The notes: a model not told the origin generated them from the sequence alone. A stretch of 58,454 bases of DNA from a virus (IMGVR_UViG_3300043443_000324:1-58454); one strand, 5' to 3'. Shown: positions 5,414 to 46,416, counted from the first letter of the stretch. Made by a program: numbers and translations.

Positions 5414-6643
5414 TCAGCGTTTCCCCTTCTTGCGCTTCACGGCGAGGCCGCCGCGAGCCTTGCGGATGTCGGGATCGTTCGGGTCGTAGGTGCCACGGTT
5501 GCCGGTGGCGGACTTGATCTGGGTCGGTTCAAGAACTACCGTTGCGACCTGATCACCCCCGTCGAGGCCGCGCGGGAACTGGATCGCGTCGTAGCCGCTC
5601 TCTTTGAGCCACTCACGCAACGGCTCTGTGTCAAAACTGCCCCGAGGTCGCGCCGGGTCATATTCCCAATCCAACTCATTGCCACGCTGAAGGAACTCGT
5701 CGAAGGACGATGGCCGCCATGGGTTCTCGTATTTCAAGTACACCGGCATCATGTATGGGCTAACATCTGCCGTGGGTCGGCTGACTGTGTACAGCCCCGC
5801 GCCTTGCTCGTCGGCGCGGTCGCTAAACCATGAGCCTACAGTATCCATGCCCGGCTTACGCCTTGGTACGAGGTTGGGAACGGCCATACGGTCGAACACG
5901 CTGAAGTGCTGCCCGAGGCGGCTGCCCTCCCACGCATTAGTGCCATGGTAGAACATCTTCGGTTCACCGTATTCGTCGATGCCCTTGCTGCCTTCGAACC
6001 AACGGCTGAAGCGCGGATCAAGCATCAGTTCTGACGGCGGCATGTAATGCTCAAGGAGACTGGGCTCCATACGGCCACCAACCTGCTCACCACCGGCAAA
6101 CCAGCGCACCTCAGCAGGAACCGAGCGCAGTCCAAGGTCTCGTGCCACCGCCGCACGCGTATTGCCCTCAATTATGTAAGGGTCGCCAAGATGGTTGATG
6201 CCCACGAGGATTGGGCTGTCAGGGTAGAGGCCGTGCTCTTCGACGGAAGGACGCAAGCGGTCGTACTGCGCCTCGCCGGGCACACGACGCTCGCCGCGCG
6301 CTCCGGGGACGACAGCCAGTTTCTGCGGGTCTAGTTCAATCGGTTTCTTAAGGTAGCCAGTAACAGGGCCGGTGACCCTGTTATCCACGCTGTAGTTTTC
6401 CTCAGCACGGCGGCGGGTGTGCTTCAGCCAATCGCCGCCGGGATTATCGGTGCGCACTTTCGGCTTCACGCGGCGACGCGGCACCGCGAAGTCAACACCC
6501 TCGGGCTTCTGCCGCATGATGCGCTCGAGCGTCTTGCGCGCCTGCGCCTCGCTGGCGTCACGCGCGAGCAGACGGCTGCCAGCCCGCACGACGTCGTCGC
6601 CGAACTCGGCGGCGAGCTTCGCAAGGCTGGTGCGCCAGCTCAT
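5414..6643 (-). CDS. Putative virion cargo protein: shared N-module + ParB/Srx-like domain + ADP-ribosyltransferase-like (ART-PolyVal) domain
   Basis: PILV...IIEGNTRAAVARDLG (ParB-like); FSRWF..SK.ID..GEP..FYHGT, GSWFS, PVYL...NP, GYDAI, PTQIKSATGNRGTYDP (ART-PolyVal-like). Confidence 0.75.
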   Translation of the reverse strand: MSWRTSLAKLAAEFGDDVVRAGSRLLARDASEAQARKTLERIMRQKPEGVDFAVPRRRVKPKVRTDNPGGDWLKHTRRRAEENYSVDNRVTGPVTGYLKKPIELDPQKLAVVPGARGERRVPGEAQYDRLRPSVEEHGLYPDSPILVGINHLGDPYIIEGNTRAAVARDLGLRSVPAEVRWFAGGEQVGGRMEPSLLEHYMPPSELMLDPRFSRWFEGSKGIDEYGEPKMFYHGTNAWEGSRLGQHFSVFDRMAVPNLVPRRKPGMDTVGSWFSDRADEQGAGLYTVSRPTADVSPYMMPVYLKYENPWRPSSFDEFLQRGNELDWEYDPARPRGSFDTEPLREWLKESGYDAIQFPRGLDGGDQVATVVLEPTQIKSATGNRGTYDPNDPDIRKARGGLAVKRKKGKR

Positions 6644-7626
6644 CGCGTGTAGGCCCCGATAGCCGGAGCGATGTTCAGCGGCGAGTTGTCGCGCTCCTCC
6701 TGCTGGGCGATGTAGAGGGCCTGCTGCGCCTTGGCATCGAGCATGGGGATCATCCCCGCGTCGACCTCGACGTACTCCATGGCCAGCTTGGCGGCCAGCA
6801 TGGAGACGATGGCCTCATACCAGCGCTGGGGGACTTCGATCTCCTGCGTCATGGTCCCGACGTCCATGATGTGCCGGTGCGCCCATACGACGATCTGCAT
6901 CACCGTGGCGGCGCTGTTAGGCACAGGCCACAGGTTCATGACCGGGGAGAGCGACTGGCGGTCGAGCCAGTACTGGAGCGGCCTGTTGCTCTGGAACGAC
7001 TTGTTCGGCAGGTTCGTGAAGTCGTCGCGGTTGAGCCTCGCCAGCGGTATCTCCGTCGGCGTGTTGCCGAGGTATATCTGGCTGAAGCCGAGGGTGCCGC
7101 TGGTTGCCCGCACGCGGAAATACTCTGAGGGCACCACGCTGCCGAGATCGTACCAAGTCCACTCCCCACTGCTGGCTACGGGAACTTCCGACTGGATGAT
7201 GGTCCAAGTGACGCCGTCGTCGGAGCGCGAGAACTCAACGGGGACGGCGGTGGCGGACCAGAGGATGCCGACGGTGGTGACGGGCGTCTCGCCGCTGAAC
7301 TGGACGATGCGCGACGTCGAGGTGTCGGTGTTGGTGCCGCTCACCTCCTGCAGCCAGCGCAGGTTGCTGTTCAGGATGTCGACGGTGCCCTTGTCGGTCA
7401 CGACCGTGGGGACGCCCTCGTAGAGCGGGTAGATCGTCTTCTGGATGCACCAGAGCGGCGCGCCCTCGTTTGCCAGAGCCGACAGGAGCAGCCACAGGTT
7501 GTCGTTCGCGATGTCGACGTGCTCGGCGCTCAGAGACTGCGCGGGCATCTTGCAGCGACGCGCAGCGTGCTCGATCACGCGGCGCGTGTTGAACGTCGTC
7601 TGCGATACCGTGCCGGAATAGGCCAT
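6640..7626 (-). CDS. Head-tail connector / tail protein with inserted discoidin-like domain
   Basis: MAYSGT N-terminus, RDDFTNLPNK...RPLQYW, LWPVP, EVPQRWYEAI pattern. Confidence 0.65.
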   Translation of the reverse strand: MAYSGTVSQTTFNTRRVIEHAARRCKMPAQSLSAEHVDIANDNLWLLLSALANEGAPLWCIQKTIYPLYEGVPTVVTDKGTVDILNSNLRWLQEVSGTNTDTSTSRIVQFSGETPVTTVGILWSATAVPVEFSRSDDGVTWTIIQSEVPVASSGEWTWYDLGSVVPSEYFRVRATSGTLGFSQIYLGNTPTEIPLARLNRDDFTNLPNKSFQSNRPLQYWLDRQSLSPVMNLWPVPNSAATVMQIVVWAHRHIMDVGTMTQEIEVPQRWYEAIVSMLAAKLAMEYVEVDAGMIPMLDAKAQQALYIAQQEERDNSPLNIAPAIGAYTR

Positions 7627-7671
7627 AAGAAGTTGCTCGCTGGTTCAGGGCAGCAGCTCGCCACGTTCGGA

Positions 7672-7721
7672 GCAAGCATCTCTGGCCGCTCCTATGTAGC
7701 AGAGGCCTCCGCCCCTGTAAA
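7672..7721 (-). promoter_or_regulatory. Late-arm promoter TTTACA-N17-TACATA followed after 8 nt by CAGAGATGCTTGC
   Basis: Intergenic; same downstream motif and spacing as the terS promoter. Confidence 0.5.
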
Positions 7722-8669
7722 CTAACAGCCGGGGTAGAGCGGCTTGCGGGGCGCGGTCGTGACGACCATCGACTGCCGCGCGGCCTCCGGCACGACCATG
7801 TTCGCGCGGGCGAGTTCCTCAACCTGCAGGCTGCCACGCGCCGCCTCGGCCACGACAAGGTCGCCGCGCGGCAGTTCCTCGACCTGCAGGCTGCCACGGT
7901 CGCAGAACGGGTGGTAGGGTATCGGCACCGGGCTGCCGCCACGGACAAGCGCCGCGTAGAACGTGTTCGCGTTGTCGAAGCGTGCCGGGCGCAGCGTGAT
8001 GGTCGCGCTGATCGACGCCGCGTAGAAGGTGTTGCTGTTGGCGAACAGGCTCGGCGACAGCGTGATGCTGGCCTGCAGCGACGCCGGGTAGAAGGTGTTC
8101 GTGTTGACGACCAGCGGCGGGTAGAGGTCGTTCCTCGGCGTGACCGTCGCCGCGTAGAACGTGTTCGCATTGTCGAAGCGCGTGTTCTGCGTGAGGGTCG
8201 TGACGTTGGCGATGTAGGCCGAGTAGAAGGTGTTCGTGTTGTCGAAGCGCGCGGCCGACAGCGTGATGCTGGCCGACAGCGTGGCCGCGTAGAAGGTGTT
8301 AGTGTTGGTGAACAGGCCCGGCGACAGGGTCACTGCGCCCGGCGTCAGCGTCGCGGCGTAGAAGGTGTTGCTGTTGTCGAAGCGCGCAGGCAGCAGGGTC
8401 ACTGCGCCGGGCGTAAGCGTCGCGGCGTAGAAGGTGTTCGTGTTGACGACCAGCGGCGGCGACAGCGTGATGCTGGCCGTGATGCTGGCAGCGTAGAAGG
8501 TGTTGCTGTTGTCGAAGCGCGCGGGCGACAGGGTCACCGCGCCGGGTGTCAGCGTCGCAGCGTAGAAGGTATTCGTGTTGTCGAAGCGCGCCGTCTGGAC
8601 AAGGGTCTGCTGCACCGCAACAGGAAGTGCCGCGAATGACGTCTCCGAAAGAGAGGAGAAGCCGAACAT
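7722..8669 (-). CDS. Repeat-rich virion structural protein (10x NxNTFY repeats plus five 10-aa C-terminal repeats)
   Basis: MFGFSSLSETSFAAL start; repeats counted in the translation. Confidence 0.75.
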   Translation of the reverse strand: MFGFSSLSETSFAALPVAVQQTLVQTARFDNTNTFYAATLTPGAVTLSPARFDNSNTFYAASITASITLSPPLVVNTNTFYAATLTPGAVTLLPARFDNSNTFYAATLTPGAVTLSPGLFTNTNTFYAATLSASITLSAARFDNTNTFYSAYIANVTTLTQNTRFDNANTFYAATVTPRNDLYPPLVVNTNTFYPASLQASITLSPSLFANSNTFYAASISATITLRPARFDNANTFYAALVRGGSPVPIPYHPFCDRGSLQVEELPRGDLVVAEAARGSLQVEELARANMVVPEAARQSMVVTTAPRKPLYPGC

Positions 8670-8675
8670 CTGCGC

Positions 8676-8939
8676 TTACCCCGGCGCCGCCTGCGGCTCT
8701 GCAGGCCAGACGATGTTGAACGGGTCGGGCTGCTGCGTAACATCGCGCAGGGCCTGACGATATGTGGCCCAAGCAGCGGCGTCAACCGGCGCGTCAGGGA
8801 GTTGCGTCCAATCGCTTGCCGCGAGGCGGGCGTTGCGTTCTGCGCGTACCGTAGCCCACTGCGCGTCATAGTCAGGCGCAGGGGTTTCGGCGTATTCCAC
8901 TGCACCATCCGCACAATCAAAAATAGCTTCTTTGCTCAT
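8676..8939 (-). CDS. Tail fibre assembly chaperone
   Basis: VRAERNARLAASDWTQLPDAP...WATYRQALRDVTQQPDPFNIVWP. Confidence 0.85.
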   Translation of the reverse strand: MSKEAIFDCADGAVEYAETPAPDYDAQWATVRAERNARLAASDWTQLPDAPVDAAAWATYRQALRDVTQQPDPFNIVWPAEPQAAPG

Positions 8940-9595
8940 GCGCAATTCCACCCAAAAATCTTTACGGTCCCAGCCGTGAAGTTGTTGAGGTCGTTCCCCC
9001 TAATGCGAATTGCGTTAATCCCCCCAACATTGCGAAGGCCGTTTATCGAACCCGCTACGTTCTGTAAGTCGCCATTATCAGTTCTACCACCGGGGCCGCT
9101 AAGCCCTATAGAATTGTCGCGCGTGTAGTTCATGATGGTTCCGCAGCCCGTCCAAGTGGGACCGGCAGTGGCGCTAGTCGCAAACAACAGAGCATCAGCA
9201 GTACTGTAAGAGCTACCATTATTGTTAGAGGTTCTCGCGCTAATCGGCATCCCCCCGTTTGTAATAAATCCGGTTAACTGAATATAAATATTATCATAAG
9301 TTTGAGGTATATTTGTGATGTTGATGGCCGTTACGCCAGTCGTAACTGTATACGTAGCAACCTCAACTAGCCCGATAGGATCGTAGCCCAGCGTAATTGA
9401 CCCCGCGCCGTTCGTAACCGTGATGCCCGCACCAGCAGTCAGCGTAGCCTTGGTGAGCGCGCTGTTAGTGCTGTTGCCGATCAGCAGTTGGCCGTTGGTG
9501 TAGCCGGTCTGGCCGGTGCCCCCGTTGCCGACAGGCAACGTGCCGTTAGCCGCCGCAAGGTTTACCGGGGGGATGAGACTAGACAAGGCGACCAT
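8936..9595 (-). CDS. Tail fibre protein with AT-richer distal part
   Basis: GTLPVGNGGTG, GQLLIGN, KATLTAGAGITVTNGAGSIT fibre motifs. Confidence 0.75.
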   Translation of the reverse strand: MVALSSLIPPVNLAAANGTLPVGNGGTGQTGYTNGQLLIGNSTNSALTKATLTAGAGITVTNGAGSITLGYDPIGLVEVATYTVTTGVTAINITNIPQTYDNIYIQLTGFITNGGMPISARTSNNNGSSYSTADALLFATSATAGPTWTGCGTIMNYTRDNSIGLSGPGGRTDNGDLQNVAGSINGLRNVGGINAIRIRGNDLNNFTAGTVKIFGWNCA

Positions 9596-9598
9596 GGA

Positions 9599-9937
9599 TT
9601 ACGCTCCCGGCTCCGCAGGCCATGTAATGTTGAACGGGTCAGGCTGCGCGGTGATGTCGCGCAGGGCTTGGCGGTAGGCGCGCTGCGCGTCGCGGATGAT
9701 ACCGCCCGTCTCAGCGGCCTTCATGACCCACCAGTCCGTTGCCGCGAGGCGGGCGTTGCGCTCTGCGCGGACTGCAGCCCACTGCGCGTCATAGTCAGGC
9801 GCGGGAGGCGTGAACTCGCCATCAACGTAATCGTCGCCAATTCGCGCGGTGTCGCTGGCGATCCATGCCGGGGTTAGCGGCTCATCCGCCAGTGCCACGT
9901 TAACGACCTTGCCGTTCTCAATGATTGCGTATCGCAT
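9599..9937 (-). CDS. Tail fibre assembly chaperone (paralog of 8676..8939)
   Basis: PDYDAQWAAVRAERNARLAATDW...YRQALRDITAQPDPFNITWP. Confidence 0.85.
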   Translation of the reverse strand: MRYAIIENGKVVNVALADEPLTPAWIASDTARIGDDYVDGEFTPPAPDYDAQWAAVRAERNARLAATDWWVMKAAETGGIIRDAQRAYRQALRDITAQPDPFNITWPAEPGA

Positions 9938-9947
9938 GGCCTATCCT

Positions 9948-11603
9948 TTACCAGCTATAGACGCGGCAGAAGCCCGCGCCGCCAGCACCGCCATCGCCTG
10001 AAAGAAAGCCCGTTACCGATGCGCCGCCGCCACCGCCACCGCCAGCAATTCCGCCGGAGCCTCCCGCCCGGGCGGGCGAAGACCCAATGTTGTTGCCACT
10101 TCCCCCTCCGCCGCCGCCCATGCCGATGGCGGTCCCATTTCCGCCTGCGATGCCCTGAGTACCCCCTGCGCCACCACCGCCAGTTTTCCCGACATTGTAG
10201 CCGCCTGCAAAAGCCGCCTGCGAAGCGTTAGCGCTCGTCAGCGCGCCACCGCCACCGCCACCGCCACCGCCTTGGTAGGAGCAGCCCGCCGCCGAGGTGC
10301 CAGCGACTACGCCACTGCTGCCGGAGCCGCCACCAAAGCCTGAGGCTTGAGCAGTGAAAGACGTGCTATCAAAGTAGGCACCGCCGAACTGCTGGCTGGA
10401 GGAGGAGGTGGTCCCAACAAGTGCAGGTTCGCCTGTCGCGTTCCCTGCGGAGAGAACACCCCCGCCGCGACCGGGGGTCTGCGCCGTGGTCCCCCCAGCC
10501 GCGCCGCCGTAAGCGACTAGTTTGCTGCCGAAAGATGAGTTCCCGCCATCTACGCCAAGGGTGCCCGCCCCCGCCGTGCTTCGCCCCGCGCCCCCGGTTC
10601 CGCCCGCGCCAATCGTAACGGTTTCCGTAGCGCTTAAGTCAGAGGCCTTGAACAGCCGATACGCATACGCGCCGCCGCCACCGCCCATACCCCCAGAGCG
10701 ATTGGTCGCGGAAGCGCCACAAGCGCCCGCACCGCCGCCGCCACCAGCGCCCCAGCATTCAACCATGACGAAGGTCGCGCCGGAAGGCTTCGTCCAAGTG
10801 CCGGATGAGGTGAACTCTTGCAGGTTGGCAGTCGCGGGAAGCGCCGACGAGGTCCACGCCGTGCCGTTGCTGGTCAGCACATTGCCAGAAGTGCTGGGAG
10901 ACACCCCTGTGACAGGCGAGGTGCCATTGCCCACCAGCACCGCGTTCGCGGTAAGGGTAGACGCGCCCGTGCCCCCGTTGGGCACGGACAGGAGGCCGCC
11001 GCCAGCCCCGCCAGCTTGCGCAAATACGTCCCACGTCGTGCCGCTGTAGACGAGCTGCACGCTGACGCCAGAGATGTCGCACACGAGGTCAGATGCGCTG
11101 CCCTCAATCGTGGAGCCGTTCCGCGCGATAGTCAGGTTGTTCGTGGCCCAAGAGTTGGCGCTGTCCACGACAACGACCTGATCGCCAACTGCCGGGGACG
11201 CCGGGAGGGTGACCGTAAATGCGCCCCCACTCGTGTTTGTCTGGACACCGTCGAAGACCGCAGCCGCGTAGTTCGAGGTCTTGACCGGGGTGTACAGCAC
11301 GCCCACGCGTTCTGCGGGCAGCGTGACGAAGACGTCCTTGGTGCCAGCGGAGAACGGGACCAGCGCACCCGCGTTGCTGCTCTCAAGCACCGTGTCGCGC
11401 GACAGCGTCGGCCCGGTCGAGGAGTAGGTGCCGATGCCGACTTCCCACTCGTTGCTGCCGGAGATCGTGTAGTAGGTCGTGTTCCCGTTGCCGATGGCCG
11501 AGAAGTTCTGGAACCCAGTCGGCGCGGTGCCGCTGAGTGTGACCGTTCCGGTGCCCGCCGTCGTAGTCGTGTCGCGGACGCGGTCTTTTAGAACAAGCGC
11601 CAT
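9948..11603 (-). CDS. Tail fibre protein with glycine-rich distal domain
   Basis: MALVLKDRVRDTTTTAGTG anchor; FTVTLPASPAVGD; FTSSGTWTKP..GAGGGGG. Confidence 0.8.
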   Translation of the reverse strand: MALVLKDRVRDTTTTAGTGTVTLSGTAPTGFQNFSAIGNGNTTYYTISGSNEWEVGIGTYSSTGPTLSRDTVLESSNAGALVPFSAGTKDVFVTLPAERVGVLYTPVKTSNYAAAVFDGVQTNTSGGAFTVTLPASPAVGDQVVVVDSANSWATNNLTIARNGSTIEGSASDLVCDISGVSVQLVYSGTTWDVFAQAGGAGGGLLSVPNGGTGASTLTANAVLVGNGTSPVTGVSPSTSGNVLTSNGTAWTSSALPATANLQEFTSSGTWTKPSGATFVMVECWGAGGGGGAGACGASATNRSGGMGGGGGAYAYRLFKASDLSATETVTIGAGGTGGAGRSTAGAGTLGVDGGNSSFGSKLVAYGGAAGGTTAQTPGRGGGVLSAGNATGEPALVGTTSSSSQQFGGAYFDSTSFTAQASGFGGGSGSSGVVAGTSAAGCSYQGGGGGGGGGALTSANASQAAFAGGYNVGKTGGGGAGGTQGIAGGNGTAIGMGGGGGGSGNNIGSSPARAGGSGGIAGGGGGGGASVTGFLSGDGGAGGAGFCRVYSW

Positions 11604-11626
11604 GCTTCGCTCCTACGTAGTATTAC

Positions 11627-12028: not shown

Positions 12029-12042
12029 GGTCTAGTCTCCTG

Positions 12043-12642: not shown

Positions 12643-12803
12643 TTGCCTTTCTTGCGCGCCGCGAAGGCGTTATCTACCAGATTTGGATAGGGTCGGCCAG
12701 CGGCCTTCGCGCGGCGCTTTGCCGCAGCCTTGCGCTTTACCGAGAGGCTCTTGGGCTTCTGCCCCTCGGGCCTCGGCTTGTCCCAGAACGGCTTGTCGGC
12801 CAT
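12639..12803 (-). CDS. Small basic protein (54 aa)
   Basis: ATG at 12803, MADKPFWDKP...AAGRPYPNLVDN. Confidence 0.7.
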   Translation of the reverse strand: MADKPFWDKPRPEGQKPKSLSVKRKAAAKRRAKAAGRPYPNLVDNAFAARKKGK

Positions 12804-12805
12804 GT

Positions 12806-14348: not shown

Positions 14349-14957
14349 TCATGCCTTGTGGCGTTTGAGGTAGCGGACGGCATTGTCCAACAGCTCGGGG
14401 CTGTCGTTGAAGAGGCCGAGGCCACGATTGCAGTTGCTGCACAGAAGCGCGCGAACAGCCCCCGTGGTGTGATCGTGGTCTATGGCAAGGTCTCTGATCT
14501 TACCCGAAGCCTTGTCCGGCGCGCGTTCCGGGCAGCCGCAGATGGCGCACACGCCGCCCTGCGCCTTCAGCATCTCTTGGTAGCGGTCGGCGTTGATGCC
14601 AGCGGACTTCCATTTGCGCTGTTTCGCGTAATGAGCGTGACACAGACCCTTGGCATAGACATGGCTGTCGCATGTTCCGATCAAGCACGGCTTAGGGGGC
14701 GTTTTGCGGTCGCGGTATTTGGTGTGGCCGTGCCGCAGCAGCCGCTGGTAGTGCATCTTGCACAGGTTTTTGGCCTTGACCGGCTCGTGGCAACCATCTT
14801 CGGCGCACTCTTCCGGCTTGACGCTGACCCGGCTCTTGATCGGGCCGACCGGCGTCGCGCCCCGTTTGAACTGCATGTAGTGCGTCTGGCAGTAGCCGCG
14901 AGCTTTGTGGGGCCTATCGCAACCCGCCATCGTGCAGGTGCTGTGTTGCTTACGCAT
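14349..14957 (-). CDS. Free-standing endonuclease VII-type (HNH) homing endonuclease with three N-terminal Cys/His repeats
   Basis: 3x C-x4-C...(LC/YC)xxHY; QGGVCAICG, LAIDHDHTTGAVRALLCSNCNRGLG. Confidence 0.85.
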   Translation of the reverse strand: MRKQHSTCTMAGCDRPHKARGYCQTHYMQFKRGATPVGPIKSRVSVKPEECAEDGCHEPVKAKNLCKMHYQRLLRHGHTKYRDRKTPPKPCLIGTCDSHVYAKGLCHAHYAKQRKWKSAGINADRYQEMLKAQGGVCAICGCPERAPDKASGKIRDLAIDHDHTTGAVRALLCSNCNRGLGLFNDSPELLDNAVRYLKRHKA

Positions 14958-15049: not shown

Positions 15050-15964
15050 TCACAGGCCGGGTGTACCGTATACGCCACGGGGGTCAGTCCATCCGAACGC
15101 ATAGCGTTCCGTCGCCTTGTAGCGCATGGAGTCGGTTTCGAAATCGCCTTCCATGCTCTTTTCCAGACCGCGACGCATGGCCAGCTTCAGACCTTCCGGC
15201 GCGTCGGTCTCAATCCACCACGCGGTGGTCGAGGTGATACGCGACAGGTTGGCCTGACCGCCGTCCAGCAGCCCCATCGACTTGACGGGGTTGATGTCGT
15301 TGTTGGCGGTGCCAGCACGCAGGGCCGACTTGAGCAGCACTTCGGCCTGAAACACGTTCGAAGGACCGGAAACGATCTTCTTCGGCGTCAGGCGGATGCG
15401 CTTGCCGTTGTTGTCCACGGCGTTCCTGATCTGGATCAGGAGCTGTTCCAGCGAGGTCTGCGACAGGTTGGCTGCCGTGGTCAGTTCGTTGGAGAAGGTG
15501 CCGTTGGCAATCGGGTGGTCGGTCGCAACCAGTTCCTTGCCGTCGCCGCCAACATAGCTGGCGTTGAAGGCGCGGTTCAGGATGTTCGCACCAAGGGTTT
15601 CCTTGGTTTCGATCAGCGACTGGGCGAGGTGACGCGCATAGGTCTGGCCGATGCGGATGTGGTCACCGTCTTCGACGAGCACCTTCGTCAGCGCGAACGC
15701 GAGACCGTAGACACGGTACACGTAGCGCTGGATGAAGAGCACGCCACCCGACTGGTAGGTGACCGGCATGCCGTCCGGCAGTTCGGGCGCGGCACCGAAG
15801 CCATAGAGCACAGGCTCTTCGTGGTAGTTCCGGGGGATGCCCTTGAACTCCTTGAAGACCTGCGACCACTCGTCGGCGCGCTGGTCGTAGATGCCGTTGA
15901 ACTCTTCGTTCAGGATCGGCTCAACGATGGAGCGGAAGTCAGTACTCCGCATGGGGGTAGCCAT
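15050..15964 (-). CDS. Major capsid protein
   Basis: 304 aa, GFGAAP..PDG..VTY, GDFETDSMRYKATERYAFGWTDPRG; position after scaffold. Confidence 0.9.
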   Translation of the reverse strand: MATPMRSTDFRSIVEPILNEEFNGIYDQRADEWSQVFKEFKGIPRNYHEEPVLYGFGAAPELPDGMPVTYQSGGVLFIQRYVYRVYGLAFALTKVLVEDGDHIRIGQTYARHLAQSLIETKETLGANILNRAFNASYVGGDGKELVATDHPIANGTFSNELTTAANLSQTSLEQLLIQIRNAVDNNGKRIRLTPKKIVSGPSNVFQAEVLLKSALRAGTANNDINPVKSMGLLDGGQANLSRITSTTAWWIETDAPEGLKLAMRRGLEKSMEGDFETDSMRYKATERYAFGWTDPRGVYGTPGL

Positions 15965-18089: not shown

Positions 18090-18518
18090 CTACAGGAAGG
18101 CCTTCATCGCGAGCGGGTCGCCCGTGATCTTGCCCAGCAGGTCGAGGTCGTTGAAAATGACGAAGAGGATTTCCTCACCGTCGGCGATATGGACGGACCA
18201 GCGGTCGCCCCCATACTTCGGTGCGCGCACGTAGTCGCCGATGCTGACCCAAGCGCCCTCGGGCCACGGCTCCATCGTGTTGCGGTTGTGGAAGGCCAGC
18301 GGCCCCATGGCGATGACCTTGGCGACCTGCGTGTTCCACATCTCCGTGTCGCGGGTCTCGCCCGCGAGGATGATGCCGCCCTTGGTCTTGGTCTTCGCGC
18401 GCCTGATCTGCAGCAGCACGCGGCTGCCGAAGGGTTTCACGCCGGGGTCGACCTTGGGGAAGGCATCCTCCTCGCCTTCGTACTCAAACTCGACCTTGTT
18501 CATGTCGTAAGCCTGCAT
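18090..18518 (-). CDS. groES: GroES/Cpn10-like co-chaperonin
   Basis: KPFGSRVLL..KTKGGIIL..KVIAMGP..SIGDYV..PKYGG..NDLDLLG. Confidence 0.85.
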   Translation of the reverse strand: MQAYDMNKVEFEYEGEEDAFPKVDPGVKPFGSRVLLQIRRAKTKTKGGIILAGETRDTEMWNTQVAKVIAMGPLAFHNRNTMEPWPEGAWVSIGDYVRAPKYGGDRWSVHIADGEEILFVIFNDLDLLGKITGDPLAMKAFL

Positions 18519-27616: not shown

Positions 27617-27796
27617 ATGACTACCAAAACCGAAGTTGACGGGGCCATCCGCATTGGCGCCTTTGTTGTCGAGCAACCCTACGGCGATGAGCCGGGGAAG
27701 GTGGGCATCTACCGCTACAACGACGGGGAGGGCGGCAACTTCGACGCCGCCGGGCTGGAGGCGCTGATCGCCGCTTACTACGAGGAGCACTTCTAG
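27617..27796 (+). CDS. Hypothetical protein
   Basis: SD GGAGG; DGEGGNF motif. Confidence 0.7.
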   Translation: MTTKTEVDGAIRIGAFVVEQPYGDEPGKVGIYRYNDGEGGNFDAAGLEALIAAYYEEHF

Positions 27797-28320
27797 TGGC
27801 CGTAGACATCAAACTGAACAACATGATCGACGCACTGGGGCGCCTCGAGCGCGTCCGCATCGAGGACGTCGAGCTGTCCGTCCGCGCCCTGCGCGGCCTC
27901 AAGAACGTCGGCGCGGTGACGCTGGCCGACGCCCAGCGCGCGATCATTGACCGCACCCTCATCAAGCAGCACCACATCGGCCGCCGCACGGTCGACGAGG
28001 TGCGCGAGATCATCGCCAACGTCTCGGCCCTGCCCGACGAGGCCCTGCCGCCGCGCGACACGGTGCTGCGTGAGGAGGACACCGAGGCCGACCTGCTGCG
28101 CTATGAGAACGCGCGCCTGCTCGACGAGCTGAAGCGCAAGGACGCGTTCATCGCCGCCCTGCGCCTCGAGCCTGACCGCCTGTCCAAGCTGCTGCAGACC
28201 GAGCGCCACAACCACACCCGCACGTGCCGCCGCCTTGACACCGTCATCGCCATGATGAGCGTGGCCGACCTGCGCCGCGCCGGGATCGACGTCGACATCA
28301 CCTTCAACGAAGAGGACTGA
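27796..28320 (+). CDS. RNA polymerase alpha-CTD-like protein with C-terminal coiled coil
   Basis: IEDVELSVRALRGLKNVGAVTLAD...LIKQHHIGRRTVDEVREII resembles the alpha-CTD HhH pattern. Confidence 0.75.
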   Translation: MAVDIKLNNMIDALGRLERVRIEDVELSVRALRGLKNVGAVTLADAQRAIIDRTLIKQHHIGRRTVDEVREIIANVSALPDEALPPRDTVLREEDTEADLLRYENARLLDELKRKDAFIAALRLEPDRLSKLLQTERHNHTRTCRRLDTVIAMMSVADLRRAGIDVDITFNEED

Positions 28321-39012: not shown

Positions 39013-39029
39013 CCCTGCCGCTATAGACT

Positions 39030-41142: not shown

Positions 41143-41152
41143 GTAAAATCAT

Positions 41153-41449
41153 ATGTTTACTCAGCTCAACCCGCACCTGCCGCTCGACACGCCCAAGGGC
41201 GCGGGCTACGCTGTCGGCGTCATCGACTACGGGCTGGAGCACAGCCTCCTGTGGGTGGTTGCCCTGAGCGCCAGCGGCGAGATATGGTGCGTGCCGAACC
41301 GCGAGGTTCGCATGCCCGCCAACTGGTCCGCAGGACGGAGGTTACATGACACCGGCATCGAAGCTGCAGGAGCGCCTGAAGAAGCTGGTGCAGGGGAGCG
41401 GCGGCCAATACCGCAAGATGCGCTGGGAGGGCCGCCGGGGCTGCCCTGA
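41153..41449 (+). CDS. Conserved hypothetical protein
   Basis: QLNP.LPLDTPKG.G.A..VIDYGLEH.LLWVV. Confidence 0.7.
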   Translation: MFTQLNPHLPLDTPKGAGYAVGVIDYGLEHSLLWVVALSASGEIWCVPNREVRMPANWSAGRRLHDTGIEAAGAPEEAGAGERRPIPQDALGGPPGLP

Positions 41450-41645
41450 CTGCTTCATCTGGTGGGAGTGGCCGAGGGCCGCCTTCGTCGAGGTCAAGGC
41501 CGGGGACGACCGCTACAGCAAGCTGCAGGCCCGCGAGGTCGAGCGCATGCAGGCGGACGGCCTGCCGGTCTACACGGCGCGAACTGAGGCCGACGTCGAC
41601 TGGATCGTCGAGCGTGTGAAAAAAGGTGTTGCAACGCCTGATTGA
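41346..41645 (+). CDS. VRR-NUC endonuclease
   Basis: GRRGCPD, FVEVKA, SKLQARE; GGAGG SD. Confidence 0.85.
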   Translation: MTPASKLQERLKKLVQGSGGQYRKMRWEGRRGCPDCFIWWEWPRAAFVEVKAGDDRYSKLQAREVERMQADGLPVYTARTEADVDWIVERVKKGVATPD

Positions 41646-41690
41646 ATGTGGTACAAGGCGCTCATCAGCAACGAAGAAGGAGTGTCCACC
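41629..41690 (+). promoter_or_regulatory. Early promoter cassette P7
   Basis: TTGCAA-N17-TACAAG, CATCAGCAACGA, AAGGAGTG. Confidence 0.8.
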
Positions 41691-41867
41691 ATGTCCAAGA
41701 CCTACACCGCCTACGCCGTCTACGAGAACGGCGACCGCGCAATATACGAGGGGCTGACCAAGGCTGCCGCGCTGCGCCGCTACGCCCGGTTCCAGCGCGA
41801 AGCCGACAAGCACCTCGTTGGCTCGGCAGGCCCGATCAAGAGCTGGGGCTGGAGGCTCGAGGCGTGA
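41691..41867 (+). CDS. Small early protein
   Basis: ATG after P7 SD. Confidence 0.75.
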   Translation: MSKTYTAYAVYENGDRAIYEGLTKAAALRRYARFQREADKHLVGSAGPIKSWGWRLEA

Positions 41868-41869
41868 GC

Positions 41870-42019
41870 ATGTACCAAGCAGTGAGCCTTCCAGATGGTT
41901 CGCCGTTCCGCATTGCGGATACGCCGTGCGCCTCGCTTGCAGAGTGCGTCAAGCGCGCGCAGCAGACCTTCGGCGAGGGCAAATACACCATAGAGCGCAT
42001 AAGGAGGGTCAAGGCGTGA
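41870..42019 (+). CDS. Small hypothetical protein
   Basis: GAGG SD, operon position. Confidence 0.55.
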   Translation: MYQAVSLPDGSPFRIADTPCASLAECVKRAQQTFGEGKYTIERIRRVKA

Positions 42020-42153
42020 GCAAGCTCGAAGCCGAGATGAAGTCCCTCGCCGCCCGCGTCCAGCAACTGGTCGCGGGCGGCATGAGCCGAGACCGCGCCA
42101 TGATGCTCGCCGTCATGGAGGCGGGCGGCAAGATCACGATTGTGAAAGGTTGA
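42016..42153 (+). CDS. Small hypothetical protein
   Basis: GTG after AAGGAGG. Confidence 0.65.
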   Translation: MSKLEAEMKSLAARVQQLVAGGMSRDRAMMLAVMEAGGKITIVKG

Positions 42154-42188
42154 TTAGTCAGGGTGACCCAATTTTTTTCATTCAGGGG

Positions 42189-42244
42189 TTGCAACGTCAG
42201 GTTGCGTGTGCCATAAGGGTGCATCAGCAACGGAGTACCAAGTC
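42189..42244 (+). promoter_or_regulatory. Early promoter cassette P8
   Basis: TTGCAA-N17-CATAAG, CATCAGCAACG, GGAGT. Confidence 0.8.
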
Positions 42245-42964
42245 ATGTCCCGCAATAGCTACGCCCACATCGAGAACGAAGCCCGCTATCAGGCTGCCAT
42301 CGACCGCCGCATCAAGGCCAACCGCGCCAAGACTGGGCGCGCCAAGTGGTTCGCCGCGCACGAAGACGCGCAGACCATCTACGATTGGCTGTTCAGCGCT
42401 GGCGAGTTCGATAGCATTGTGGACCTTGACCCGCGCTGCTCCATTTGGGAAGACAACGGCGAGATCGACCACTGCTTTGAGGTTGATGGCGAGGACTACC
42501 GCTGCAAGTGCAAGCGTCGCCACCACCCGCTGACGGCCTACAATCGCGGCAACTTCTTTGACAAGCTGCGCACCGCCATCGACGAGTGGGGCGGCCTGAC
42601 TGACGGCCAGCACGCCGCTGCCGCTCGCATTCTCGGCGAGGCTCGCGAGAAGCTGGCCGGTCGTGAAGTTGCCCGCGCAGCCCAGCTCGCCGCAGACGTG
42701 AACACCAACCACGTTGGCGCTGTCGGCGAGCGCCGCGACTTCGAGCTGACCGTCGAGCGCACCCACAGCTTCGACAGCCAGTTCGGCACCGTCTACATCA
42801 CGATCTTCCGCGACGCCGACAACAACGTCGTTGTCTACAAGGGCAGCATTGCCTTCGAACGCGGCGAACAGGTGCGTGGCAAGGCCACCATTAAGGCCCA
42901 CGATCTGCGCGATGGCGTGCCGCAGACTATTATTGCCCGCCCTAAGTTTGAGGTGGCGGAATGA
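42245..42964 (+). CDS. Early protein with C-terminal OB-fold-like domain
   Basis: HVGAVGER..FELTV....FDSQFG......FRD..NN.VVYKG...KATIKAH....GVPQT.I.RPK. Confidence 0.75.
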   Translation: MSRNSYAHIENEARYQAAIDRRIKANRAKTGRAKWFAAHEDAQTIYDWLFSAGEFDSIVDLDPRCSIWEDNGEIDHCFEVDGEDYRCKCKRRHHPLTAYNRGNFFDKLRTAIDEWGGLTDGQHAAAARILGEAREKLAGREVARAAQLAADVNTNHVGAVGERRDFELTVERTHSFDSQFGTVYITIFRDADNNVVVYKGSIAFERGEQVRGKATIKAHDLRDGVPQTIIARPKFEVAE

Positions 42965-44325
42965 CCCGCACCTTCAAGCCCCACGCCTATCAGGAGGAGG
43001 TCATCGACTTCATCTGCCAGACCAAGCGCTGCGCGGTCTGGGCTCCGATGGGCGGCGGGAAGACCGTCTCAACCCTGACGGCGCTGGAGCGCCTGAGCGT
43101 GGTCGAGGACGTCTACCCCGCGCTGATCCTCGCCCCGCTGCGCGTCGCCAAGACGACGTGGCCGGACGAGGTGCAGAAGTGGGACCACCTGCAGGGCCTG
43201 CGCGTCAGCGTCATCACCGGCACCCCCAAGCAGCGCGCCCGTGCGCTGGAGGCCGAGGCGGACATCTTCACCACGAACTATGACAACATCCTCTGGCTAC
43301 GGCAGGCGCTGGGCGACAAGTGGCCGTTCAAGACGGTCGTGGCCGACGAGCTGACCCGCCTGAAGTCCTTCAGGCTCCGGCAGGGCGGCTCCAGAGCGCG
43401 TGCGCTGGGTCAAGTGGCCCACGCCCCCGGCAGCCGCTTCATCGGCCTCACGGGCACGCCTGCGCCGAACGGCATCAAAGACCTGTGGGGCCAGCAGTGG
43501 TTCATCGACAAGGGCGAGCGGCTGGGGCGCACCTACGCCGCCTTCGAGCAGCGCTGGTTCCGGCGCGGCTACGACGGCTACAGCCTCATCCCCTTCGAGC
43601 ACTCGCAGGCCGAGGTGCAGGACCGCCTGCGCGACGTCTGCCTGACCGTCACCGGCCTGCCGGTCGACGAGCCGGTGGTCAACCCGATCTACGTGACGAT
43701 GCCCCACGGGCCGCGCGTCCTGTACGACGAGATGGAGCGGCACGCCTACGCCGAGATCGAGGGCGAGGGCGTGGAGGCCGTGAACGCGGCGGTGAAGACG
43801 CAGAAGCTGCTGCAGCTCTGCAACGGGGCGATCTACATCAACGACGACGGCTCGTGGGAGGACGTGCACAATGCCAAGCTGGACGCGCTTGACAGCATCA
43901 TTGAGGAGGCGAACGGCGCGCCTGTTCTCGTCGCCTACAACTTCAAGCACGATCTCGAGCGGCTACGGGGTCGTTTCCCTCAAGGTCGGGTGCTGGACGC
44001 TGACAGCGATACGATCCGCCAGTGGAACGCCGGGCGCATCCCGCTACTATTCGCTCACCCTGCGTCGGCGGGGCACGGACTGAACCTCGCCGACGGGGGC
44101 AATATCATAGCCTTCTACGGCGTGAACTGGAACCTAGAAGAGCACATGCAGATCATCGAGCGCATCGGGCCGATGCGGCAGAAGCAGGCGGGCCACGACC
44201 GGCCCTGTCTGGTCTACCCCATCCTCGCCCGCGACACGGTCGACGAGGTGGTCATGGAGCGCCTGTCGTCCAAGCGGTCCATTCAAGAGGTGCTGCTCGA
44301 CGCGCTGAAGAGGAGGAAGAAATGA
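42961..44325 (+). CDS. SNF2-like superfamily 2 helicase
   Basis: MGGGKT, VADE, LTGTP, KLLQL.NG, SAGHGLNL, QIIERI. Confidence 0.9.
   Translation: MTRTFKPHAYQEEVIDFICQTKRCAVWAPMGGGKTVSTLTALERLSVVEDVYPALILAPLRVAKTTWPDEVQKWDHLQGLRVSVITGTPKQRARALEAEADIFTTNYDNILWLRQALGDKWPFKTVVADELTRLKSFRLRQGGSRARALGQVAHAPGSRFIGLTGTPAPNGIKDLWGQQWFIDKGERLGRTYAAFEQRWFRRGYDGYSLIPFEHSQAEVQDRLRDVCLTVTGLPVDEPVVNPIYVTMPHGPRVLYDEMERHAYAEIEGEGVEAVNAAVKTQKLLQLCNGAIYINDDGSWEDVHNAKLDALDSIIEEANGAPVLVAYNFKHDLERLRGRFPQGRVLDADSDTIRQWNAGRIPLLFAHPASAGHGLNLADGGNIIAFYGVNWNLEEHMQIIERIGPMRQKQAGHDRPCLVYPILARDTVDEVVMERLSSKRSIQEVLLDALKRRKK
43871..44083 (+). CDS. Candidate overprinted gene (+1 frame) inside helicase
   Basis: GGAGG 9 nt upstream of ATG; helicase codon bias distorted here. 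Confidence 0.4.
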   Translation: MPSWTRLTASLRRRTARLFSSPTTSSTISSGYGVVSLKVGCWTLTAIRSASGTPGASRYYSLTLRRRGTD

Positions 44326-44708
44326 ACGACCTACCCTGTGACACCGAACCGACGCAACACGCCCTCGAGGAGAGCGTGACGCTGGAGACCAACCCGATAG
44401 GCCTCGCGTACCCGGAGCGGCCGGTGCCTGCGCCCAAGGCGGCAGAGCTGCTGGGCCGTGCGGCCATGCACATGCACGACCGCGCGTCGACCTACGACAA
44501 GCCCGAGGGCGAGCGGTCCATGGGCCGCTGCGTCGAGGCGTTCAACGCGGTGACGGGCCGCGACCTGAGCGAGGGCGAGGGCTGGCTGCTCATGGCCCTG
44601 CTGAAGCAGGTGCGGCTGTTCACCCGCAGCGAGTACCACGCCGACAGCGCGGAGGACGCCATCGCCTATCTGGCGCTGCTGGCCGAGGCGAAGGGGGCGG
44701 GGCGGTGA
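44322..44708 (+). CDS. DUF6378-like all-alpha protein (possible nucleotide hydrolase)
   Basis: DRASTYD, ERSM, GWLLMALLKQVR, HADSAEDAIAY. Confidence 0.7.
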   Translation: MNDLPCDTEPTQHALEESVTLETNPIGLAYPERPVPAPKAAELLGRAAMHMHDRASTYDKPEGERSMGRCVEAFNAVTGRDLSEGEGWLLMALLKQVRLFTRSEYHADSAEDAIAYLALLAEAKGAGR

Positions 44709-44914
44709 GGCAGAAACTACACCCAGTCATAGCGGATACCGCAGAACCGCTGTCCGACGACATGGCTCAAGCCCTGATGCTGCTAGAAATAGAGCATCTT
44801 GGCGATCACGATGCCGTGCTGACGGAAGACGATGTTCGGGCATTTATCCGCCAGACGCCATACGCACATGTCGCAGATGACTTTGAGGACTACTTTCTTC
44901 TCTGGGCCGACTAG
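44705..44914 (+). CDS. Acidic hypothetical protein, last gene of the plus arm
   Basis: GTGA overlap; stop overlaps the convergent gene's stop (CTAG). Confidence 0.55.
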   Translation: MRQKLHPVIADTAEPLSDDMAQALMLLEIEHLGDHDAVLTEDDVRAFIRQTPYAHVADDFEDYFLLWAD

Positions 44915-46416
44915 AGGCCCAGTTTGGAAAGTCGGTCCTTGATCGCCTGCGCTGTCACGTCGTCAAGGAAGCCGCTGACGCCGGGTTGCAAAAACTTCTG
45001 GGTGTTGCCAGCGCGAACAGGTTCTCGCGGCGGCTTGGCGTCTTTGCCAGCCGCGATGGCGGCCTCGTACTTTTCTTTAGCCGCGCGGTACTCTTTCTGC
45101 TGACGCCTCCACTCGGAAAGGCTCAGGGTCGCTTGCTGGCCGCGAAAACCCGACAGATCGCCGAGGTCTGCGTACTTCTTGTTCAGCATGCCGTGCGCGA
45201 TTTCCGCGATATTTATGTCAGGGTCCACCGTCCCCATGAACTCCACGGGGAGATTATAGCCGTATGTCGGATTGCGTGAGAAATCGACCACGACCTCACG
45301 CCTAGGGTCCAGAACACCGATGTTCTGGATCATGTAGCTGGGCTTGTCGATCTGCGCGGGGTCGGTAATAAGCGCGCGGGTGAGAGGGAGCGACAATCCG
45401 CCGCTTTCCGTAAACGCGGTGTCGCGGTGCAGTGCCTCCTGAAGCGCCTTGCGTTGCTCCGTAGGCAACGCGCCGTATTGGAGATAGCCTTCCGGGTTAT
45501 CAATGCCCTTAAAGTCGCGGATATAGTTGCCGATAACCGCGTTGACGCGGGCGCGGTCATCTCCGCCGAAGGCAGAGTTGGCCTGCGACATCATGAGTTC
45601 GCCGGTCGTCTTTGAGAAATCTGTACCCGTTCCGGCCATGCGGTAGGGCGCCAGAAGCGGCAACTTTCCGGTCTTCTTGTAGTACGCCATGGCACGGTTC
45701 ATGATACCGGACGCAACACCGGGCGTAGAAACGGCCCAACCTAAACCGGGATTAGCGGGCATGAAATCCTGACCGCCGTATTCATGAACCGGAATGTCCA
45801 GATCAGTGGGGCCGATCCCGGTTATCGTAGTGTTTGCGCCAGAACGATCTGACATCGTGCCAATGATGAAGTTGTCGGCGAGCTCGTCAACGCCAAGCGA
45901 AGGCCCCTGCGGGACGATGCGGTTGTGTTCGACCTTTACGGCTAGGTCTTTGAGACGCCCCATCTCGCCCTTGCGCAGGCCATACGTCTCGGGATCAAAA
46001 GCGATCTTCGAAAGATCACGCACGTTTGTCGGTGCGGTTTGAACCTCGAGGGGGCGCGCTGTGCGGGGGGCTGCTGGCACAGTGAAATTGGCTACATTGC
46101 GCTGCCCGATGGCCGCCCGCGCAGCCGAGTCCGACGCGCCCTCCTTGACCGCGAGAGACTTCTTAGCCTTGCGCTTGGGGGCCGTCACTGTCAGGTCACC
46201 GGCTTCCGTGCGCGGCGCGGCAGGCACCTTGCGCTGCCTGCTGGCTGCGGGCGTCACGGAGAAGTCGATCTCCTCCGGCAACTCGCGCATGATGCGCTCG
46301 TAGGCGTTCTTGGCCTGAGCGACTGTCGCGTTCTTCGGCAGCACGCGGCGCAGGGCGCGGACGGCATCATCACTGAGTTCGCCGACTTCTTTGGCCAGCT
46401 TGGTGATGATGCTCAT
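44911..46416 (-). CDS. Putative virion cargo protein: shared N-module + unknown C-domain
   Basis: Last gene of the ejection operon; N-terminal 54 aa homologous to 5414..6643. Confidence 0.75.
   Translation of the reverse strand: MSIITKLAKEVGELSDDAVRALRRVLPKNATVAQAKNAYERIMRELPEEIDFSVTPAASRQRKVPAAPRTEAGDLTVTAPKRKAKKSLAVKEGASDSAARAAIGQRNVANFTVPAAPRTARPLEVQTAPTNVRDLSKIAFDPETYGLRKGEMGRLKDLAVKVEHNRIVPQGPSLGVDELADNFIIGTMSDRSGANTTITGIGPTDLDIPVHEYGGQDFMPANPGLGWAVSTPGVASGIMNRAMAYYKKTGKLPLLAPYRMAGTGTDFSKTTGELMMSQANSAFGGDDRARVNAVIGNYIRDFKGIDNPEGYLQYGALPTEQRKALQEALHRDTAFTESGGLSLPLTRALITDPAQIDKPSYMIQNIGVLDPRREVVVDFSRNPTYGYNLPVEFMGTVDPDINIAEIAHGMLNKKYADLGDLSGFRGQQATLSLSEWRRQQKEYRAAKEKYEAAIAAGKDAKPPREPVRAGNTQKFLQPGVSGFLDDVTAQAIKDRLSKLGL

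Follow-up and report, generated by a model that had tools for sequence, protein, structure and literature searches.

The viral sequence IMGVR_UViG_3300043443_000324:1-58454, hereafter referred to as the window, is a complete phage genome of 58,454 bp (direct terminal repeats; rated 100% complete), whose nearest isolates are the 62-kb Caulobacter phages RW, KcrB, RLK, and GB2A, with ~70% DNA identity over 30% of a 4-kb query. Two of its genes, which we refer to as gA and gB, encode proteins that begin with a common leader of 54 amino acids (aa) and then continue into unrelated payloads, namely a ParB-like domain plus an ADP-ribosyltransferase (ART) domain in gA and an unnamed domain, payload X, in gB. 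The leader is almost certainly a modular element with swappable payloads. The reading that we favor, at a probability of roughly 55%, is that it serves as an address label for loading cargo into the virus particle, with packaging, a docking partner, injection, and targets in the next host as its putative elements. We infer such an address from the position of both genes in late structural and ejection operons, from their payloads of the polyvalent-protein type, and from the sharing of leaders within genomes. A first-pass annotation of this DNA had already proposed an effector architecture with a constant leader for packaging or ejection; its modular N-terminal leader and many payloads were borne out, while packaging or ejection with the DNA is a step that we infer.

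A modular N-terminal leader under selection as a peptide

Genes in the window were called from open reading frames (ORFs) and the GC content of third codon positions (GC3), and their products were scanned with Pfam and PHROGs. The ORFs of gA and gB were as the first-pass annotation had described them, as was the ungapped alignment of their first 54 residues (28/54 identities), and a BLASTP comparison of the whole proteins (63.9 bits, E 2e-15) also has residues 1-54 as its gap-free portion. Whole-length paralogy of gA and gB was considered and rejected, since the BLAST alignment reaches residue 158/185 with many gaps and a profile-profile comparison of the two families (hhalign) gave a probability of 2.6%; the two payloads are therefore unrelated, as had been claimed. 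A six-frame search of the window with gA residues 1-84 recovered gA itself and gB only (gB E 3.0e-12, 50% identity). Similarly, a profile of seven leaders detected no third copy among all stop-to-stop frames of ≥40 aa in the window, the two matches having E-values of 5e-29 and 7.6e-23 and the next best frame 0.24.

At the DNA level, the leaders of gA and gB are identical at 99/162 positions (61%), with a longest identical run of 15 nucleotides (nt), and identities are found at 36, 39, and 24 of the 54 first, second, and third codon positions, respectively. First and second positions are kept and third positions have diverged, which reflects selection upon the peptide; the likeness is therefore old and held at the protein level, rather than the product of recent gene conversion. 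The leader windows of both genes have a GC3 of 0.82-0.88 vs 0.55-0.77 downstream, in agreement with the AT-richer payloads seen in the first pass, and most genes of the genome passing the GC3 filter lie at 0.8-0.98. By codon usage, the leaders look resident and the payload bodies look imported. In AlphaFold2 (AF2) models, the leader is predicted to consist of three helices, at residues 3-14, 16-27, and 32-44 of gA and at residues 3-11, 16-25, and 32-45 of gB, the latter with a predicted local distance difference test score (pLDDT) of 85-91. The gA model was built with 70 relatives (mean pLDDT 83.7) and the gB model with 19 sequences (mean pLDDT 69.6).

Library searches returned no family for the leader in Pfam, PHROGs, NCBIfam, or PDB sequences, the best match of its profile among PDB sequences being a designed helical bundle (E 0.0074). 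Searched with tblastn against the GenBank phage collection (E<=10), it gave chance matches to the linker part only, in seven Klebsiella phages, and the 54 and 75 pattern matches of leaders in IMG/VR contigs included none that was confirmed. A word-index search with gA residues 1-60 retrieved only gA itself and one relative (P0022), and literature searches, which covered mostly sources other than subscription journals, returned no description of the leader. NCBIfam likewise contained nothing for gA, gB, or g550, the gene directly upstream of gB.

When the seven-leader profile was searched against 1.84 billion representative proteins, it yielded 19 matches at E<=1e-3, 10 of which begin at residue 1-2 of the protein. 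The other nine were rejected as internal helical repeats rather than N-terminal leaders, three of them (P0025, P0033, and P0035) upon inspection, which revealed tetratricopeptide (TPR)/ankyrin-like 'AYDAIMAVIPEE' repeats, and six on position and stretch number alone. With the gA family added, there were 20 leader-bearing proteins, all of which carry the leader at the N-terminus (residue 1-2), and 19 of them were aligned into four subtypes, which keep the fold pattern at 29-49% identity between the subtypes compared. At least nine payload architectures are found under the leader, among them ParB+ART, ART alone (P0027), a small unknown body (P0026), X, X', Y, DUF7178 (P0020 and P0023), a PcfJ-like body (P0029), ParB+X (P0003), and ParB+ART+X, the last in a single chain of 818 aa (P0002). 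Because P0002 holds ParB, ART, and X, the payloads of gA and gB are fused in this relative. A further protein, P0019, has a leader 95% identical to that of gB and a body that is only distantly aligned to X (hhalign probability 97).

Subtype A (MSWR...), which includes the gA leader, precedes ParB+ART, ART, and the small unknown body, and subtype B (MSIITKLAKE...), which includes the gB leader, precedes X, X', Y, and DUF7178. Subtype C (MANPLLRWLL...) is followed by ParB+ART+X, ParB+X, or a ParB+ART fragment, and subtype D (MGVKKKLIDLAVK...) by X, DUF7178, the PcfJ-like body, or ParB+ART. Viewed from the payloads, three subtypes each are found for ParB+ART (A, C, and D) and for X (B, C, and D), and two for DUF7178 (B and D). 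The first-pass annotation had regarded confinement to one payload, or identity with a known catalytic subdomain, as fatal to its proposal; the profile search found many unrelated payloads, and the leader has no family match in any of the four libraries named above.

A scan of metagenome contigs provided 47 loci with relatives of the ParB-ART protein encoded by gA, and the first 60 residues of pairs of cargo proteins were compared by local BLOSUM62 score. Nine genomes entered this comparison, the window and eight loci; three other loci were left out, as their N-termini were truncated. The two cargo genes of the window scored 126, and the same-genome pairs from L037, L038, L039, and L043 scored 112, 95, 66, and 157, respectively, with L035 at 26. 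The bodies of those same-genome pairs scored 31-54, and 30 cross-genome leader pairs had a mean of 33 and a maximum of 72. Full pairs from L036, L045, and L047 scored 27, 26, and 20 and are without sharing. One leader type is thus common to neighboring or distant cargo genes in 5/9 genomes, as illustrated by the repeated leader of L037 (MGIASRFAAKAA...) and the leader pairs of L038 (MSRARRLIKAASEYIPDAIEEP.../MSRLKRVIKAVAPYVPDEVEEP...) and L043 (MAKTPVRRLIEKGIEAGADYIPDA.../MARTPVRTLIEKGIEAGADYIPDA...). The gA leader, on the other hand, scored 22-27 against the leaders of orthologous ParB-ART genes from five loci, vs 640-720 for the gA core against the orthologous cores. Since the leaders of one genome are alike and those of orthologous ParB-ART genes are unrelated, the leader goes with the phage and not with the payload. 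Sharing in five of nine genomes is therefore as expected from an address that fits some component of the vehicle, rather than from a part of the enzyme.

Features of the window discussed in the text, with positions counted from its first nucleotide
Feature	Position	Strand	Evidence or remarks
gA, 409 aa: leader, conserved junction, ParB/Srx-like domain, ART-PolyVal domain, basic tail	5414..6643	minus	ORF, Pfam, AF2 model
gA leader, residues 1-54, subtype A	6482..6643	minus	28/54 identical to gB leader; GC3 0.88
gA junction, residues 55-70, PRRRVKPKVRTDNPGG	6434..6481	minus	conserved in ParB-ART family; leader-end motif F-A-V-P precedes
ParB/sulfiredoxin-like domain, gA residues 115-182 (Pfam stretch)	6098..6301	minus	ParB_N, Foldseek
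ART-PolyVal ADP-ribosyltransferase domain, gA residues 223-385	5489..5977	minus	PF18760
gA C-terminal tail, ...YDPNDPDIRKARGGLAVKRKKGKR	5417..5488	minus	disordered in model; pLDDT <50 at residues 400-409
gB, 501 aa: leader, disordered basic linker, payload X	44911..46416	minus	ORF, AF2 model
gB leader, residues 1-54, subtype B	46255..46416	minus	GC3 0.85
gB linker, residues 55-128, basic, Pro/Ala-rich, contains KKSLAVKEG	46033..46254	minus	pLDDT <50 for residues 47-128
Payload X, gB residues 129-501, unnamed family	44914..46032	minus	18 relatives besides gB (P0002-P0018, P0038)
g550, 550 aa: long Gly/Ala-rich N-terminal part, unnamed C-terminal domain, tail HGGLADKRKAR	46413..48065	minus	directly upstream of gB
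328-aa virion gene, upstream of gA	6640..7626	minus	weak SU10-adaptor likeness, 22.6 bits, under cut-off
First late block: HNH, small and large terminase, 844-aa portal, Cpn10-like, 309-aa scaffold-like, capsid, tail-fibre genes, 328-aa gene, gA, SU10-adaptor	24784 to 889	minus	
Major capsid gene	15050-15964	minus	Mu-gpT-like
Coiled-coil scaffold-like gene, 309 aa	17132-18061	minus	
SU10-adaptor gene	889-1542	minus	clear, 110 bits

Payloads, junctions, and tails

The first-pass annotation had characterized the gA body as ParB-like plus ART-like, and both parts were recovered, the ART by sequence and the ParB-like part, with less certainty, mainly by fold. PF18760 (ART-PolyVal) matches gA well above its cut-off (58.7 vs 31.2 bits, E 1.4e-15), which places the domain in this family, and its scores for the relatives P0022 and P0027 are 65.1 and 87.8 bits. 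The ART model aligns with the PARP1 catalytic domain over 122 residues (Z 7.2, root-mean-square deviation [rmsd] 3.9). Among 70 family sequences, H233 is near-invariant and Y302 and D352 are invariant, and all three lie in or beside the model strands 230-238, 294-303, and 353-356. Passages of PMC5512222 assign to the ART-PolyVal clade an H-Y-D active site, with His on strand 1, Tyr on strand 2, and Asp on strand 5. By our own assignment of the modeled strands as 1, 2, and 5, gA fits this pattern.

For the ParB-like part, ParB_N (PF02195) scores 16.4 bits vs a cut-off of 26.3, which is below the Pfam limit for membership by sequence, and PHROG 620 ('ParB-like') matches at E 5.8e-5. The best Foldseek matches of gA are ParB-N, Noc, KorB, and sulfiredoxin (Srx), each at probability 1.00 but with an E-value of 6e-3 and a low template modeling score on the whole model. 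Residues G160, N161, and R163 are invariant among the 70 sequences; an arginine in the active-site pocket is conserved in the ParB/sulfiredoxin superfamily. A PADLOC search gave only a weak match, of the ParB-like part to a methyltransferase model.

The segment between leader and payload differs between the two proteins. A basic, proline-containing linker had been described after both leaders, and this description applies to gB, in which residues 55-128 are basic and Pro/Ala-rich. It does not apply to gA, where the corresponding stretch PRRRVKPKVRTDNPGGDWL belongs to the conserved portion of the ParB-ART family and is not a free linker, with P55, R58, P61, P68, and W72 invariant among the 70 sequences. 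At the other end of the protein, the disordered basic tail of gA ends ...RKARGGLAVKRKKGKR.

The gB protein, including its payload X of ~370 aa, has no match in Pfam, PHROG, or NCBIfam, and none in the GenBank phage collection. When the X family was searched against 185,579 species genomes, 33 pattern matches were obtained and 0 were confirmed, so that this collection yielded neither prophage relatives nor a host. The KKSLAVKEG motif column of the linker is conserved across proteins of the X family. Foldseek returned nothing for payload X at E<=0.001. With VIA-align, the top 10 comprise nine YTH domains plus archaeal PH1033 (1wmm), with Z of 9.1 to 6.7 (9.1, 8.0, and 8.0 for the top YTH domains), 113-132 residues aligned, and rmsd of 3.3-4.1, and subsequent rows include ASCH, EVE, McrB-N, and Lon-N; it should be noted that Z of ~8-9 is only slightly above the level reached by unmatched models. 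A PUA-like core of the YTH/ASCH/EVE type is therefore possible for payload X, as a lead from the model rather than an assignment; in that event, X could bind modified DNA or RNA after injection.

The ParB-ART family of gA comprises 164 clusters at E<=1e-5, and from 120 of these that were listed, we examined 119 N-termini. Nearly every member opens with a helical N-terminal segment, and the 119 N-termini contain 83 distinct strings over their first 25 residues. At least eight sequence types can be distinguished among these segments, all of which open basic, typically as M-S-R-x-x-R followed by hydrophobic residues, and many of which end in [LF]-x-V-[PK] directly before (A)PRPRQKPxVRTDNPGG. In the 79 members with a recognizable junction, the leader preceding it is 5 to 71 aa long (median 39), and its shortest form is a single amphipathic helix of ~17 aa (MSRASRLLDLLTEFAVP). 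The leader profile of the window recognizes only five of the ParB-ART N-termini. Judged from these sequences, the 54-aa module is one elaborate type within a broad, varied class of ParB-ART leaders. Conservation is higher in the C-terminal tail than in any of the leaders, with GG[LFR][AV]V found in the last 30 residues of 77/107 members.

As a separate observation, larger ART-bearing polyvalent proteins of 846-1626 aa, encoded in the IMG/VR loci L011, L015-L018, and L021-L023, contain recurring K-x-GG-h motifs, including KAKGGLAGFL before the ART domain, and their C-termini end ...GG.VTHAHHLEIEERPL. In these other lineages, the motifs may represent a related kind of junction or tail signal.

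Variable slots in the late operons

The genes for gA and gB occupy variable slots at two late structural and ejection operons on the minus strand. Between them lies a plus-strand replication block (24869 to 44914) with primase-helicase, exonuclease, SSB (single-stranded DNA-binding protein), DNA polymerase A, and SNF2 helicase genes. The second late block (58415 to 44911) starts with a tail-fibre-like gene and includes a 541-aa gene with a PHROG match to 'virion structural protein' (E 7e-39), followed by a 637-aa gene that resembles tape-measure genes in its motifs and in weak, partial PHROG matches and by a 439-aa gene with a weak PHROG 'DNA ejection protein' match (E 4.7e-4). It ends with genes of 271, 845, and 550 aa (g550) followed by gB, the start of which overlaps the stop of g550 (ATGA). 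The start of gA overlaps the stop of the upstream 328-aa gene in the same manner (ATGA).

The slot of gA is bounded by the 328-aa gene and a 75-aa gene at 5185-5412. In the locus L008, it is occupied by a 267-aa gene encoding a short leader, an ART domain, and a tail, and in L058 and L059 by a ParB-only gene. It is empty in Caulobacter phage RW, in which GP076c and GP075c are separated by a 4-nt gap, and also in the complete relative G001. The latter has neither gA nor the leader, and its X forms part of a 600-aa protein that starts differently and is encoded at the same operon end. The 328-aa gene itself is 69-71% identical in G001 and L008. The idea that gA always lies behind this gene was rejected, as tblastn finds the 328-aa gene in 5/47 metagenome loci; ParB-ART genes lie ~1.5 kb from it in L048, L051, and L052 and elsewhere in most loci. 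Likeness to the SU10 adaptor is thus found in two genes of the window, clearly in one and weakly in the 328-aa gene (Table).

Near the other slot, g550 probably adds a third cargo protein to this system, one in which a long N-terminal module takes the place of the short leader. Its residues 408-542 match PHROG 873 (E 1.3e-8), its tail resembles the gA tail GGLAVKRKKGKR, and a 34-residue stretch of its N-terminal part (KPRNLN.RV...) is common with P0049, a ParB+ART protein of 569 aa (E 5e-5). The C-terminal domain of g550 also follows a ParB part in L068. A diverged ART-PolyVal domain in g550 was considered and rejected, the hhalign probability against the gA family being 8.9% with only the last strands and tail aligned.

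The loci L035, L037, L038, L039, and L043 share an array composed of a 600-1000-aa gene, then ParB-ART, then one or two genes of 400-675 aa. For L035, L037, and L043, convergence of this array on an SNF2 helicase gene was confirmed, which is the position of g550/gB in the window. In L037 (2923-5273), L039 (2959-5279), and L053, ParB-ART is directly followed by X; the two are ~40 kb apart in the window. Because ParB-ART and X are adjacent in three metagenome loci and fused in P0002 and P0003 (the latter by its ParB part), they are likely to be functionally linked. This 'Rosetta stone' link, read from sequence, suggests that ParB-ART and X may act together upon a nucleic-acid target.

Several other genes of the window are mentioned here in their own right. 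A 174-aa early-region product (27796-28320, plus strand) contains an RNA polymerase alpha-subunit C-terminal-like domain (PF03118, E 2.2e-7, above cut-off) and might act on host transcription as a decoy or modulator. A Cpn10/GroES-like gene (18090-18518, minus) lies between the portal and scaffold-like genes, an HNH/endonuclease VII gene (14349-14957, minus) is inserted directly downstream of the major capsid gene, and a DUF5856 gene (4100-4462, minus) with a PHROG 'starvation-inducible transcriptional regulator' match (E 4.7e-12) is located among the tail genes.

Competing explanations and known systems

If the leader is an address, gA and gB would be accessory cargo or effector proteins of a podophage and small relatives of polyvalent proteins, each built from a three-helix leader of ~45-54 aa, a disordered basic segment with [LF]-A-V-[KP], and a payload. 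The leader would stand outside the payload chemistry, as a genome-specific label that several cargo proteins have in common and that is swapped through recombination at the junction. Either alone or in combination with the short motif, it would attach the cargo to some part of the procapsid, or of the internal ejection-protein core, of that phage, and the enzymes would thereby be packaged and reach the next host along with the DNA. In this host, the ART would have proteins as its targets, and the ParB-like domain and X would target nucleic acid.

Several observations weigh against this interpretation. In P0004, P0013, P0038, P0049, and P0091, X or ParB-ART is preceded by a longer N-terminal part of a quite different kind, and G001 has X without the leader; neither payload therefore requires the leader. 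Leaders are unshared in four of the nine genomes (L035, L036, L045, and L047), the leader-bearing proteins are known from metagenomes only, and late expression is read from gene order. The predicted leader fold is a generic three-helix bundle, the structural matches of which are weak (Z 3.4-4.2). In addition, Pfam and PHROG scans of the genome, including its head module, detected no prohead or other protease family, and a T4-like cleavable signal is therefore without support. Two unassigned head-module genes gave no protease lead in the ESM Atlas either, the 183-aa gene having no family and the 182-aa gene matching 'cement protein' (score 0.84).

The leader might instead be a docking, oligomerization, or regulatory module that works inside the infected cell on proteins that are never packaged, whether by binding a phage-encoded partner, inhibitor, or chaperone or by gathering the enzymes into one complex late in infection. 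Within-genome sharing is equally expected if the cargo binds any genome-specific partner, and the weak structural matches of the leader include helical dimerization or DNA-binding domains, such as phi29 p16.7c (Z 4.2), the DdrO C-terminal domain (Z 3.8), and RuvA III (Z 3.6). However, the genes belong to virion and ejection operons, with which they are coupled in translation, and lie outside of the early and middle regions; moreover, a host-directed enzyme would be most useful at entry. Their payload domains are also of the polyvalent-protein type, for which delivery with the DNA is the model published in passages of PMC5512222. We therefore consider a purely intracellular role unlikely.

A second alternative, itself a variant of the address, concerns the short motif [LFMI]-A-[VAI]-[KRP...], which occurs in basic surroundings at the leader end (DFAVP, DFAAKP), directly before payload X (KSLAVKE, SLAAKP), and in C-terminal tails (GGLAVKRKK near the C-termini). 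It is found at residues 52-55 and 400-403 of gA and at residues 88-91 of gB. This motif could mark a site of processing, serve as a binding peptide, or reflect the nature of the linkers. In the first case, the leader would be a removable propeptide, with cuts at the leader end and before the payload and the tail that release the enzymes and split fused forms such as P0002 into single domains. The distribution of the motif fits such a role, as does its frequency, with 83 occurrences in 28 related proteins vs 22.0 +/- 4.7 in shuffles (maximum 41 in 500), a count that kinship renders descriptive only. Likewise, DALAAKPAEAS is present on both sides of the ART insertion of P0002 and once in P0003, and 5/8 matches of the loose motif form in the window fall within gA, gB, and g550. 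No match of the loose form is found in the capsid, scaffold-like, or portal proteins of the window, which, along with the protease searches described above, argues against proteolytic maturation, and the motif may equally be a binding peptide or a common feature of Ala/Lys/Pro-rich DNA-binding linkers. Processing of the leader is accordingly improbable in our view.

The weakest alternative, that the common 5' segment is a recombination handle or duplication remnant with no protein function, accords with clear cassette exchange at the junctions and with the constant flanks typical of polymorphic toxin loci (PMC3482391), but we consider it very improbable, because 61% DNA identity with a 15-nt longest run is a poor substrate for homologous recombination and because the codon-position pattern, the confident three-helix model of the gB copy, and the fold pattern kept over four diverged subtypes all point to a functional peptide.

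Returning to the address label, it might extend beyond the 54-aa module. Encapsulin cargo-loading peptides bind HK97-fold shells, and by analogy, a short N-terminal amphipathic helix together with an [LF]-A-V-[KP]-basic peptide could form a bipartite, general cargo-loading signal that binds the inner HK97-fold capsid or the ejection-protein core. We regard this extension as doubtful. If it were true, it would provide a sequence-readable rule that identifies the injected effectors of a large uncultured podophage clade, and it could be transplanted so as to fill phage heads with foreign proteins. Proteins that enter with the phage DNA are active ahead of any phage gene expression and are prime counter-defense candidates; to our knowledge, outside of T4, P1, N4, and a few others, they are not recognizable from sequence. 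If the leader itself is a loading signal, 'same leader, different body, one genome' would become a computational rule for listing the injected effectors of environmental podophages, with a reach indicated by the 164 clusters of the ParB-ART family alone. It would also offer a handle for studying cargo loading and ejection in podophages and a possible tag for foreign proteins.

The concept of a constant leader with variable cargo has precedents among polyvalent proteins, MuF toxins, and the internal proteins of T4; the leader family of gA and gB is without a match in the libraries searched, and what is new in this analysis is the within-genome leader sharing, the variable-slot placement, and the junction/tail motif. 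Among polyvalent proteins, ART-PolyVal and ParB domains are hubs, and delivery with the DNA is predicted for them (passages of PMC5512222). The likeness to gA and gB lies in PF18760 and a ParB/Srx-like domain and in variable multi-domain proteins encoded among virion genes. Polyvalent proteins (Iyer et al. 2017) are defined by at least two effector domains of their repertoire in one polypeptide of a phage or mobile element; with ParB-like and ART-PolyVal domains in a complete phage genome, gA is a polyvalent protein by that definition, as P0002 would be with ParB+ART+X, whereas the single payload domain of gB belongs to no named family. Both differ in that they are small (two and one payload domains) and are encoded by separate genes, each with its own copy of the leader. 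The same source describes MuF and ArdC-N as head or 'header' domains and processing by metallopeptidases, and its passages at hand mention neither the leader nor an [LF]AV[KP] junction motif (PMC5512222).

The MuF toxins of temperate phages combine a constant N-terminal, head-associated module with variable, recombining C-terminal toxic or enzymatic domains (PMC5576092), which is the same constant head and variable payload seen in gA and gB. By Pfam and PHROG, no MuF (Phage_Mu_F) domain is present in gA, gB, or g550, which places them outside of the MuF family; their leader is also far smaller, and no immunity gene is evident beside gA or gB. A structural precedent in a podophage internal protein is provided by the 380-aa gp29 of cyanopodophage A4, of which the N-terminal 92 residues are ordered and form the innermost pre-ejectosome layer on the portal, the rest not being resolved (passages of PMC12002296). 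It similarly pairs a small N-terminal anchor with a mobile C-terminal part. The leader has no sequence or fold match to the chains of the A4 structure, one of which (9k3a_B) weakly matches the gA body (probability 0.60, rmsd 17.5). Unlike gA and gB, gp29 is a core ejection protein and not swappable cargo.

The capsid-targeting signal of T4 is a peptide of ~10 residues that is cut by the prohead protease gp21. The leader of gA and gB is, in contrast, predicted to fold into a helical module, ~45-54 aa in length and shorter in relatives, and is found in a genome in which no such protease was detected, and it is thus not a T4-type targeting sequence with a short signal and prohead-protease removal, although it may work in a similar manner. 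The phage also differs, being a podophage with an ejection-protein operon. T4 Alt is an ADP-ribosyltransferase as well, but it has an R-S-E active site vs H-Y-D in the gA clade (passages of PMC5512222). There is no sequence similarity between the two systems. Nevertheless, T4 internal proteins are directed into the capsid for co-injection by an N-terminal leader (passages of PMC12373910), and Ip1-3 and Alt, as unrelated accessory proteins of one phage with only that leader in common, are the known system closest in logic to gA and gB.

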